A stretch of 64,000 nucleotides of DNA from assembly GCF_055900595.2 (NCBI RefSeq), contig NZ_CM148325.1. One strand, given 5' to 3'. Under the pieces are notes generated by a model. That model searched no databases. It was not told where the DNA came from and worked only from the letters and a program-made list of their open reading frames with translations. Position 1 is the stretch's first letter. Each line of letters begins with the position of its first letter. This document shows positions 3,308 to 11,528 of the stretch, one piece after another. The position numbers and the translations under genes were made by a program.

Positions 3308-3316
3308 TGTTACGGG
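3308..3316. repeat. Left copy of the 9-bp IS1 target-site duplication (TGTTACGGG)
   Basis: The identical 9-mer directly flanks both IS1 ends. Confidence 0.85.
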
Positions 3317-3371
3317 GGTGATGCTGCCAACTTACTGATTTAGTGTATGATGGTGTTTTTGAGGTGCTCCA

Positions 3372-3647
3372 GTGGCTTCTGTTTCTATCAGCTGTCCCTC
3401 CTGTTCAGCTACTGACGGGGTGGTGCGTAACGGCAAAAGCACCGCCGGACATCAGCGCTATCTCTGCTCTCACTGCCGTAAAACATGGCAACTGCAGTTC
3501 ACTTACACCGCTTCTCAACCCGGTACGCACCAGAAAATCATTGATATGGCCATGAATGGCGTTGGATGCCGGGCAACTGCCCGCATTATGGGCGTTGGCC
3601 TCAACACGATTTTACGTCACTTAAAAAACTCAGGCCGCAGTCGGTAA
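3372..3647 (+). CDS. insA: IS1 protein InsA
   Basis: 91-aa [24 protein letters not shown]..., Zn-finger/HTH InsA. Confidence 0.95.
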
Positions 3648-4069
3648 CCTCGCGCATACAGCCGGGCAGTGACGTCATCGTCTGCGCGGAAATGGACGAA
3701 CAGTGGGGCTATGTCGGGGCTAAATCGCGCCAGCGCTGGCTGTTTTACGCGTATGACAGGCTCCGGAAGACGGTTGTTGCGCACGTATTCGGTGAACGCA
3801 CTATGGCGACGCTGGGGCGTCTTATGAGCCTGCTGTCACCCTTTGACGTGGTGATATGGATGACGGATGGCTGGCCGCTGTATGAATCCCGCCTGAAGGG
3901 AAAGCTGCACGTAATCAGCAAGCGATATACGCAGCGAATTGAGCGGCATAACCTGAATCTGAGGCAGCACCTGGCACGGCTGGGACGGAAGTCGCTGTCG
4001 TTCTCAAAATCGGTGGAGCTGCATGACAAAGTCATCGGGCATTATCTGAACATAAAACACTATCAATAA
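3566..4069 (+). CDS. insB: IS1 InsB (transposase made as an InsAB' fusion by -1 frameshift)
   Basis: 167-aa ORF overlapping the insA 3' end in the -1 frame, the standard IS1 arrangement. Confidence 0.9.
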
Positions 4070-4084
4070 GTTGGAGTCATTACC

Positions 4085-4093: not shown

Positions 4094-4313
4094 TTAATTC
4101 ATCAGAATGTGCATTTGGGGTGTTGGCTGGAAGAGTCGCTGGTAGATGTTATTGTGCCAGCAGGGGCAGGGTAAGGTACTGTATCGATATGCTTTGGCAA
4201 TTGCATGTGCCGCAGATGGAGATGAAATGCCAATAAAAAAGCCTGAGTTCGATGAGGGACGAACTCAGGCTAGTGTTAAGTTTTACAGTAACACGCCGCA
4301 GCGCGTTGGCTGA

Positions 4314-5429
4314 TTAGAACTGGTAGACGATACCAACTGCAAACTGGTCATCAGCTGCTGCGCCAGTAATGGCGGCGTCATCTTTATCCAGCATGTTGAA
4401 TTTGTATGCAGTATAAACGTTCATGTTCTTATTAAAGTAGTACCAGGTACCAACTTCAATGTAGTTCACACGGTCAGCGTCAACATATCTATGTCCAGGT
4501 ACCCCTTTGATATCTTTACCTTTAGAGTACACATAACCTAAGGACGGACGCAGACCAAAGTCGAATTGATACTGAACAACCGCTTCAAAGTTCTGGGTTT
4601 CATTGATAAGTTGATCACGCATTATTGTATTGCCTTCTCGATCGGCAACACCTGTATCAATAGAACCCGGAGTCATATTACGAGTTTCGCCGTACATTAC
4701 AGCTGCGTAGACATTGTTCGCGTCATACTTTGCAGCCAACGACCACAGTTCAGCATTTGAACCGTTTCCATCGGCAACTTGATCGTTGGTGCGATCAGAT
4801 TTGCTATATGCACCAACGATACCAAAACCATTGATGTTATAGTCTACAGACAACGCATAGCCGTCACCATTTTGTTTCTTAGTGCTACGGTTGCTGTTTT
4901 TGCCTTGGTACTGAATCGCAAAATCAAGACCATCAACCAGGCCAAAGAAATCATAGTTACGGTAGGTTGCAACACCGTTGGTACGACCATTCATGAAGTT
5001 GTCAGCGGAAGCCCAGGAATCGCCACCCCATTCAACTAACATATCGGTATAAGCTGCGGCATCATAAGCAACACCGTAGTTACGGCCATAGTCAAATGAT
5101 CCTAACTCGTTATATTTCAAACCGGCGAAGGTTAAACGGGTTTTTTCCTGGTTTTCACCTTCGGGCTTGCTGGCGTCGAGGTTGTATTCAAACTGACCAA
5201 AACCAGTCAGTTCGCTGGTGATTTGGGTTTCACCTTTAACACCGAAACGAGCATAGGAGGTATCTTCGTTTTCGCTGTTATTATCATCAGTATTTGACCA
5301 GATGCGTTCGCCAACCATCTTGCCGTAGAAATCAACTTTATTGCCATCTTTATTATAAATTTCAGCCGCATTTGCTGCGCCAGCAACTAATAACGCCGGG
5401 ACCAGCATTGCCAGAACTTTTCTTTTCAT
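4314..5429 (-). CDS. yedS: Outer-membrane general porin, OmpC/NmpC family, apparently intact
   Basis: Track ORF 4314..5459; start trimmed to [21 protein letters not shown] signal peptide; C-terminal ...GIVYQF beta-barrel signature. Confidence 0.8.
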
Positions 5430-5976
5430 TATGTATTCCCTTGTGATTATAATCTTCATGAATATATCAATAAGTGCCGTTATCCAAAAAAAAGCACATT
5501 TGGATACTATTCTATGAAGTTCATTTTATTTTAAGGATTACATGTAACAAATGTATTTAAAAGATTTCAAAATGTTTCTAATCTATTTAATATAATTCGG
5601 GATTATGAATTCTGAATATAAACATTCATGAATATTATAAATGCATATCAATAAGTTATGAGTTGAGCAGAAAGATAGGGGGTATCAATGATTGTTGCGC
5701 TAAACACCTGGTGTGATCACGCGCACATTAATGAAGGAATAAAAAAAGCCGGCATCATGCCGGCCCCAAAAATATAAACAAGACGATAAAAGGCTAATAA
5801 CGTAAGCATCATGACACAGAATAATAAAAAGGTATAATTGTAATCAGTGCTAATATATTGATTAAATGAATTAATAAAGCCGATATCAAAGATAAATAAA
5901 ATCGCTCAAAACGATTTTTCCTGTATTCACTGCCGTTGCGCAAAAATTATCTATTTGTTCAAAAAATGAGTGAGTC

Positions 5977-6360
5977 TTGACTGGCTCATCCAATGTGGAA
6001 AAATGTGACTTTTATCACATAATAGTACTAAGTCTGAATTTTCCGGGTTATCTCAAAATGGAATACGGTTCGACAAAGATGGAAGAGAGACTCTCTCGCA
6101 GCCCTGGCGGCAAACTGGCTTTGTGGGCTTTCTATACATGGTGTGGCTATTTCGTCTGGGCAATGGCGCGTTACATCTGGGTGATGAGCCGGATCCCCGA
6201 TGCCCCCGTGTCGGGATTTGAAAGCGATTTAGGCTCTACCGCGGGAAAGTGGTTAGGGGCACTGGTCGGATTTTTATTTATGGCTCTGGTCGGGGCATTG
6301 TTAGGCAGCATTGCCTGGTACACCCGACCTCGTCCCGCACGTAGCAGACGCTATGAATAA
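5977..6360 (+). CDS. yedR: Small inner-membrane protein YedR
   Basis: ORF with two predicted TM helices; start uncertain (TTG at 5977, GTG at 5995 or ATG at 6058). Confidence 0.55.
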   Translation: MTGSSNVEKCDFYHIIVLSLNFPGYLKMEYGSTKMEERLSRSPGGKLALWAFYTWCGYFVWAMARYIWVMSRIPDAPVSGFESDLGSTAGKWLGALVGFLFMALVGALLGSIAWYTRPRPARSRRYE

Positions 6361-6399
6361 AAACTGCTAAGGTGGCGACTCTTTGGCAACGGAGCGCGT

Positions 6400-7095
6400 A
6401 TGGACTTACAACACTGGCAGGCACAGTTCGAAAACTGGTTGAAAAACCATCATCAGCACCAGGACGCGGCCCATGACGTGTGTCATTTTCGCCGCGTCTG
6501 GGCTACGGCACAGAAGCTGGCGGCAGATGACGATGTCGATATGCTGGTGATTTTAACCGCCTGTTATTTTCACGATATTGTGAGCCTGGCGAAAAATCAT
6601 CCGCAAAGGCAGCGTTCTTCAATCCTGGCGGCAGAAGAGACGCGTCGCCTGCTCCGTGAAGAGTTCGAGCAATTTCCGGCGGAGAAAATCGAGGCCGTTT
6701 GTCATGCCATTGCCGCTCACAGTTTCAGCGCGCAAATCGCCCCCTTAACAACGGAAGCTAAAATTGTCCAGGATGCGGATCGGCTGGAAGCCCTGGGGGC
6801 GATTGGCCTGGCGCGCGTGTTTGCCGTTTCAGGGGCATTGGGCGTGGCGCTGTTTGATGGTGAAGATCCGTTCGCACAGCATCGCCCGCTTGATGATAAA
6901 CGCTACGCGCTGGATCATTTCCAGACTAAGTTGCTGAAGCTACCGCAAACCATGCAAACCGCAAGAGGCAAGCAGCTGGCGCAGCACAACGCGCATTTTT
7001 TAGTCGAGTTTATGGCGAAGCTCAGTGCCGAACTGGCGGGGGAGAATGAAGGTGTCGATCACAAGGTGATAGATGCGTTTTCATCCGCTGGCTGA
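6400..7095 (+). CDS. yedJ: HD-domain phosphohydrolase YedJ
   Basis: 231-aa ORF with an HD motif (CYFHDIV). Confidence 0.8.
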
Positions 7096-11291: not shown

Positions 11292-11528
11292 AAGGGTATC
11301 ATTAACACCCGACCGGATGTGGCGCTCACGTCGCATCCGGTCGGGTGTACCAGTGTCTGCACTGAATTGCCTGATGCGACGCTATCGCGTCTTATCATGC
11401 CTACGTTATAAAACTATCGATGTCTGTCGCGTCTTATCATGCCACCATTATAAAATTATCGCTGTTTTGCGGTACGCTATCGCCAGGTTATGCCAGAATC
11501 ATAAAAAAGCAGGTTGGGAGTCGTCAGG

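Follow-up and report, generated by a model that had tools for sequence, protein, structure and literature searches.

An uninterrupted OmpK35/OmpF-like porin gene of a lineage other than that of K-12 yedS at the yedS position of an Escherichia coli chromosome

At the position where Escherichia coli K-12 carries the pseudogene yedS, the chromosome analysed here holds an uninterrupted porin gene of a different porin lineage. The gene lies in a window of 64,000 nucleotides (the whole stretch of contig NZ_CM148325.1, assembly GCF_055900595.2, that was analysed) and very probably encodes an intact general-diffusion porin of the OmpF/OmpK35 type, one of several lineages that swap at this slot. For this reading we rely on the intact open reading frame, its family and fold, the pore residues, the synteny, the structure of the alleles with their frequency in the population, and the signature of selection; what we infer in addition concerns expression (conditional and low), regulation, trimer formation and permeability.

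Results

Reading frame, gene signals and locus

The open-reading-frame list and translation place the porin frame on the minus strand: it starts with the ATG at 5429, ends with the TAA at 4316-4314 and comprises 371 codons plus stop, uninterrupted by any internal stop. A frame this long that also matches its family from end to end lies far beyond chance. The gene and its signals are as follows.

4314..5429, minus strand: porin coding sequence, 371 codons plus TAA; mature protein of 350 aa
5367..5429, minus strand: signal peptide of 21 aa, predicted cleavage between ANA and AE (alignment with OmpF/OmpC signal peptides)
5437..5442, minus strand: Shine-Dalgarno sequence AAGGGA, 7 nt before the ATG at 5429 (read from the letters)
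4232..4271, minus strand: intrinsic porin terminator, in which a T-run follows a G+C-rich stem of 12 bp at 4271-4240 (terminator scan and folding)

The mature N-terminus, AEIYNK, aligns with the AEIYNK/AEVYNK of OmpF and OmpC, and the C-terminus reads AVGIVYQF. The Shine-Dalgarno sequence is unchanged across the six strains compared, and the terminator folds at -35.4 kcal/mol (z = -6.3 against shuffles). A 381-aa form from the in-frame ATG at 5459 (30 nt upstream, adding 10 residues) was rejected: it is without a Shine-Dalgarno sequence, and RefSeq uses the 371-aa form, whose start is also annotated in strains with identical sequence. The ORF list, translation and alignments agree with the coordinates, 371-aa length, signal peptide and C-terminal signature given in a preliminary description of the sequence. 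A sequencing error hiding a frameshift is unlikely, given identical sequences in many independent assemblies.

The region around the porin shows collinearity with K-12 (2,028-2,042 kb) and likewise with annotated genomes of E. coli. The porin slot lies between rseX/drpB(yedR) and hchA, as does K-12 yedS, with the following neighbours.

5741..5830, minus strand: rseX, an Hfq-binding sRNA gene next to the porin on its upstream side (Rfam RF01401, 95.3 bits; gathering score 50)
5977-7095: drpB(yedR) and yedJ
3316..4084, plus strand: IS1, 769 bp, with insA/insB and a 9-bp target duplication, TGTTACGGG (boundaries, duplication)
2093-2944: hchA, beyond IS1 from the porin

Elsewhere in the neighbourhood, two compared strains (L005 1072-1353 and L006 1571-1852) have the cell-division gene drpB annotated as a pseudogene, with an internal stop. 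The yodC-dgcQ intergenic region (window 11318-11426) exceeds its K-12 and ST2350 counterparts by ~67 bp; it is made up of REP-like palindromes (GCCTGATGCGACGCT..., CCGGATGTGGCGC...), an ordinary REP/BIME copy-number variation.

IS1, by which the window differs from all genomes compared, sits past the porin terminator by ~150 nt and ahead of the hchA start by 371 nt. It was considered as a disruptor of the porin and rejected, the element lying beyond an intact terminator with the porin gene untouched. Apart from IS1, the window strain is ~100% identical (rounded) over 7.9 kb to strains EC931, B771 and 1217KP, and in EC931 the element is missing from this adjacent sequence. When complete E. coli genomes were searched for the IS1 junction, none matched it as one identical stretch: most full-coverage matches were joins of two pieces, with IS1 at another place in the porin region, and one was a single piece at 94.7% (H110). 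The insertion appears private to the window strain. It could alter hchA expression, and transcription from it would run antisense towards the porin 3' end.

Comparison with K-12 yedS

The preliminary description had the yedS porin intact here and broken in K-12. K-12 yedS (b4496; formerly b1964-b1966) is indeed annotated as a pseudogene, and its letters show one in-frame TAG and one frameshift. That the frame at the yedS slot of the window is uninterrupted was borne out; of the two outcomes that would remove the contrast, a missed frameshift here and an intact allele in K-12, neither was found.

The window gene is nevertheless not the K-12 sequence minus its lesions. Nucleotide identity to the K-12 pseudogene is 68% overall. 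Flanks, 5'UTR and signal peptide match at 90-100%. In 50-nt bins numbered relative to the ATG, identity is 98-100% between -150 and +50, 90% between +50 and +100, 44-84% over nt 100-1100 of the coding sequence, and again 92-98% at the last codons and terminator. The window porin is ~60% identical to the repaired K-12 YedS (397 aa), 60% to OmpF, and 58% to both OmpC and PhoE. Mature-protein orthology with K-12 YedS, a member of an OmpS1-like lineage of 395-397 aa, was not found, the window protein being no closer to it (~60% aa identity) than to OmpF and falling in a separate clade of a neighbour-joining (NJ) tree. Intact copies of the K-12 lineage occur in many strains; they measure 395-397 aa, are 86-97% identical to the repaired K-12 YedS and go by the names 'outer membrane protein yedS', 'outer membrane protein S1' and 'porin OmpC'.

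These comparisons bear on the possibility that the window gene is the ancestral, undamaged form of K-12 yedS, with the stop and frameshift gained in K-12. Such an origin would fit the same position, the identical 5'UTR, signal peptide and last codons, and the presence in K-12 of one TAG and one frameshift. We give it almost no credence: the mature region is 44-84% identical per bin and ~60% at the protein level, the tree places the two in different clades, and the true intact versions of the K-12 lineage are a different protein, by which this origin is already refuted. Of the earlier contrast with K-12, the intact frame, the slot and the K-12 pseudogene stand; the equation of the two genes does not, and the alignments identify the window gene as a different porin lineage at the K-12 yedS position.

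Family, predicted fold and pore residues

Against Pfam Porin_1 (PF00267) the protein scores 396.1 bits (cut-off 23.7), residues 27-371 covering profile positions 1-337 of 337. Its closest match among solved structures is Klebsiella pneumoniae OmpK35 (9hn1, 486 bits, full length, E=9e-145), followed by OmpK35 5o77 (447 bits), Omp35 of Klebsiella (Enterobacter) aerogenes (5o78, 439), E. coli OmpF (399) and OmpC (~313-329). This ranking makes the 'OmpC/NmpC-like' label of the preliminary description imprecise, phage-borne porins of the NmpC/OmpD type being ~53% identical, and 'OmpK35/OmpF-like' fits better. A reading as a phage porin of the NmpC/Lc/OmpD type was rejected: although Porin_1 is common to both, the best phage-encoded match is 52.8% identical, and the neighbours are core chromosomal genes, not prophage. 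The protein also stays below the NCBIfam cut-offs for OmpF (NF007446, 449.9 against 583), OmpC (NF007841, 417.4 against 484) and PhoE (NF007544, 414.4 against 599), and therefore lies outside these three orthologue groups.

An AlphaFold2 model of the window porin (pLDDT 74.6, pTM 0.73, loops of low confidence) predicts a 16-stranded beta-barrel. Foldseek on this model returned OmpK35 5o77 (TM 0.81/0.89, E=2e-42) and OmpF at the top, with TM scores ranging from 0.79 to 0.89. All OmpF constriction residues considered (K16, R42, R82, R132, D113 and E117), together with the L3 GGD and the terminal F, are kept, their equivalents in the window protein being K37, R61, R98, R149, D129, E133 and G135-G136-D137. 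The L3 motif reads LVEWGGD, as in OmpK35, versus LPEFGGD. By family profile, modelled barrel fold, constriction zone, predicted Sec signal peptide and the aromatic BAM signal YQF, the protein is a Porin_1 member.

The resemblance to OmpK35/Omp35 (PDB 9hn1, 5o77, 5o78) and OmpF extends over fold, constriction and, for OmpK35, the LVEWGGD motif, at 62-66% identity to OmpK35. The window porin differs from OmpF and OmpK35 in sitting at another locus and in its score of 450 against the NCBIfam OmpF cut-off of 583. One external loop is longer, with a ~14-aa insertion around residues 253-275 relative to the sister allele L003.

Relatives and selection

The NJ tree joins the window protein to porins from Citrobacter, Enterobacter and Leclercia, at 74-77% aa identity, and from K. 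oxytoca (73%), with OmpK35 as sister; the lineage of K-12 YedS stands apart in a clade of its own, closer to OmpC, OmpF and PhoE. The Citrobacter and K. oxytoca genes occupy the same locus, in the order dcm-yedJ-porin in Citrobacter and dcm-yedJ-drpB-porin in K. oxytoca. Inside Escherichia, the window class includes an E. fergusonii porin (85%), the L003 sub-class (90%) and, in the 90% cluster, a porin of E. marmotae.

Paired with L003 and with the 352-aa allele L004, the window gene gives dN/dS values of 0.12 and 0.18, respectively; for Citrobacter and K. oxytoca the values are 0.10 and 0.12. The dS values are 0.5-1.5. These ratios (0.10-0.18) indicate clear, long-term purifying selection, which argues that the lineage encodes a working protein. 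Between E. coli allele classes dS is 0.51 and 1.24, and flank divergence, at ~1-3%, is far below it; the classes thus either greatly predate the chromosome around them or go back to an ancient import.

Allele classes at the slot across E. coli

Population counts were taken from 5426 complete E. coli genomes, with intact and disrupted copies inspected in samples of these. The class-specific 3' half of the window class (371 aa) is present at 95% identity or more in ~900 of the 5426 genomes, 892 of them with at least 80% coverage. The sister sub-class L003 (357 aa, 90% aa identity) accounts for ~600 genomes, a number obtained by difference; a 352-aa class (L004/L005), 68% identical in protein to the window porin, occurs in 1141, and the K-12/OmpS1-like class in 1662 at 83-100% identity. 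The approximate shares of complete genomes are 16%, 11%, 21% and 31%, in that order. In E. coli the slot is thus occupied by no fewer than three porin classes that have diverged deeply from one another, and one of these comprises two sub-classes.

Divergence between the classes is limited to nt ~100-1100 of the coding sequence, with sharp boundaries at conserved handles. Promoter region, 5'UTR, signal peptide and terminator are nearly identical among them, the signal-peptide stretch being 100% identical in all allele classes at the slot. Two alleles have a composite appearance. In L003, a mosaic, the first ~500 nt match the window allele at 90-100% (mostly 96-100%) and later bins at 14-88%; P0011, a protein of 352 aa with 81% identity to that of the window, falls into the 352-aa class in the tree and looks like another inter-class recombinant.

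The window allele is common and already catalogued. The exact protein, RefSeq WP_000824355.1, is recorded for at least 1000 contigs, where it is called 'porin', 'outer membrane pore protein F' or 'Outer membrane protein N'; in ST131 the window class is represented by an intact copy of 371 aa with 98.8% nucleotide identity. The K-12-type copies at the yedS locus are called 'ompC: porin OmpC' by PGAP (H41-H49), and many genomes therefore seem to have two ompC genes.

Elsewhere, the slot porin has been knocked out independently by IS1 (H35), IS2, IS3, a P2-like prophage, and a frameshift with an internal stop; such frequent independent inactivation implies that it is dispensable. Repeated loss is seen in L006, L018, L019 and H35, an IS30-like element lying just downstream in L018 and L019. 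In E. coli 2012C-4502 (L007 2498-2674), a P2-like prophage with ogr/Delta, late control D and tail genes truncates the porin after ~86 nt. The conserved signal-peptide region may contain a phage attachment site.

The same data speak to a recent horizontal import of a Citrobacter/Enterobacter/Klebsiella-type gene, replacing the resident yedS by homologous recombination. It is suggested by the closest relatives outside Escherichia being genes orthologous by locus, at 74-77% aa identity in Citrobacter, Enterobacter and Leclercia and at 73% in K. oxytoca, by the sharp boundaries at the handles, and by a dS to other E. coli classes of 0.5-1.2 against flanks of ~1-3%. Outside Escherichia, however, no donor above 77% aa identity was found, and the class has diversified inside Escherichia (85-90%) and spread over ~16% of genomes, unrelated lineages included; with no close donor for so diversified and widespread a class, any import was ancient, not recent. 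We consider a recent import improbable.

Upstream region and expression

The region between rseX and the porin contains the following elements.

5430..5740, minus strand: upstream regulatory region and 5'UTR, from the rseX terminator to the porin ATG, ~25% G+C (0.25-0.26 at 5400-5700)
5712..5727, minus strand: CRP-type palindrome TGTGCGCGTGATCACA, just past the rseX terminator, unique in the window (0 expected)

Across K-12, L003, L004 and L005, the 400 nt upstream of the porin ATG are 86-100% identical per 50-nt bin, and the last 100 nt 98-100%. A sigma-70 scan gave five sites where 5.1 are expected, that is, chance level; the candidates at 5616-5589 and 5550-5523 belong to this set. At the K-12 equivalent of the CRP-type palindrome, 2033766, an in vitro CRP footprint has been assigned to yedS (PMC12871828, a 2026 preprint). 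The palindrome at 5712-5727 is a candidate regulatory site only.

Regulation by RNA was considered as well. The 5' 36 nt of MicF pair with the yedS initiation region at -12.6 kcal/mol, compared with -13.1 +/- 3.0 for 500 shuffles and -27.4 for ompF. Direct MicF pairing at the translation-initiation region of yedS thus finds no support in the calculation, its duplex energy being the same as that of shuffles. A role of MicF/MarA in yedS regulation is said to be invoked in the 2013 study by Warner and colleagues, whose clinical isolate reportedly lacked both OmpF and OmpC.

The Salmonella porin at the same locus, OmpS1, is described as 'quiescent', being repressed by H-NS, with LeuO lifting this repression; ompS1 mutants are attenuated in mice (PMC4264507). 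In K-12, the yedS (ompS1) transcript is detectable and drops 2.5-fold upon sigma-E induction (PMC2731931). The AT-rich upstream region of the window, taken with the OmpS1 precedent, suggests silencing under standard conditions. A report of 'a putative porin with 50% homology to K-12 YedS' in the proteome of an O26 strain (PMC9731836) was set aside, as it could not be assigned to the yedS slot or to the window allele.

The window gene might then be a silent relic, its frame intact yet without useful expression, functionally irrelevant and awaiting the decay already seen in K-12. The AT-rich, H-NS-type upstream region, a promoter scan at chance, the quiescence of Salmonella OmpS1 and the frequent inactivation in other strains are all compatible with that fate. 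Yet dN/dS stays at 0.10-0.18 over dS values of 0.5-1.5, the pore residues are all kept and the upstream region is conserved across classes. The sigma-E-responsive transcript of K-12 yedS and the attenuation of Salmonella ompS1 mutants point the same way, as does the functional YedS reported from a clinical isolate by Warner et al. 2013. We regard a silent relic as quite unlikely. With an intact frame at a slot where K-12 has a pseudogene, an additional general porin in the window strain, as the preliminary description had proposed, is plausible.

Discussion

We favour the reading of the window gene as an intact OmpF/OmpK35-type porin. The protein would be a classical trimeric, 16-stranded porin that is exported by Sec, cleaved after ANA and inserted by BAM via its C-terminal YQF. 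Divergent porin lineages would replace one another at the slot between rseX/drpB and hchA, which goes by yedS in K-12 and by ompS1 in Salmonella, with the near-invariant promoter/5'UTR/signal-peptide region on one side and the 3' end and terminator on the other acting as recombination handles; K-12 carries another, OmpS1-like lineage in inactivated form. Expression is most likely conditional and low in standard conditions, in view of the H-NS-type AT-rich upstream region and as for Salmonella ompS1. The porin would matter most on loss of both OmpF and OmpC, by offering residual entry to small hydrophilic solutes, including beta-lactams and carbapenems.

More broadly, and with only a slight lean in its favour, we propose that the yedS/ompS1 slot is a multi-allelic porin cassette. 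At least three lineages (371/357-aa OmpK35-like, 352-aa and 395-397-aa OmpS1-like), 30-40% apart in protein, would be exchanged by recombination, intragenic mosaics included, behind one invariant promoter/5'UTR/signal-peptide handle and ahead of a shared terminator. Their comparable frequencies, a dS of 0.5-1.2 where measured against flanks of ~1-3%, and the repeated knock-outs would point to long-term balancing or frequency-dependent selection on a supposedly 'quiescent' porin, with phage, colicin, antibody and antibiotic as proposed pressures. No description of such a multi-lineage, cassette-like polymorphism of the yedS slot was found in the literature searched.

Several known porins bear comparison. 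E. coli YedS shares with the window porin the slot, 5'UTR, Shine-Dalgarno sequence, signal peptide and family, and it too is intact in non-K-12 strains; the K-12 lineage differs in length (395-397 aa against 371 aa) and in its mature protein, ~60% identical. Warner et al. [quoted passage not shown]

Salmonella OmpS1 is an H-NS/StpA-silenced quiescent porin activated by LeuO and OmpR, and its regulation may be carried over to the window gene by analogy, the AT-rich upstream region being consistent with H-NS silencing. The literature (PMC2731931) and annotations equate yedS with ompS1. The OmpS1-like label, a likeness drawn by names and not by alignment, belongs to the 395-397-aa K-12 lineage and not to the 371-aa lineage.

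The window gene itself is of little consequence, being a catalogued RefSeq 'porin' unchanged in many E. coli genomes. Nor is an intact porin gene at the yedS slot unusual, the class-specific half of the window allele being present in ~900 of 5426 complete genomes. A functional YedS in a clinical isolate was reported in 2013. What the comparison changes is how the slot is to be read. Calls of 'yedS intact or pseudogene' made against K-12 mix at least three different porins, and with the PGAP label 'porin OmpC' on K-12-type slot copies, the inference of porin loss in resistance genomics can err. An OmpK35-like pore at the slot is a candidate for residual carbapenem and cephalosporin entry in strains that lose OmpF and OmpC, and the slot porin is a candidate phage or colicin receptor in a lineage-dependent manner. 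If the slot is indeed a cassette locus, 'yedS' in resistance studies would denote functionally different pores, for example in ST131 and in K-12-like strains.
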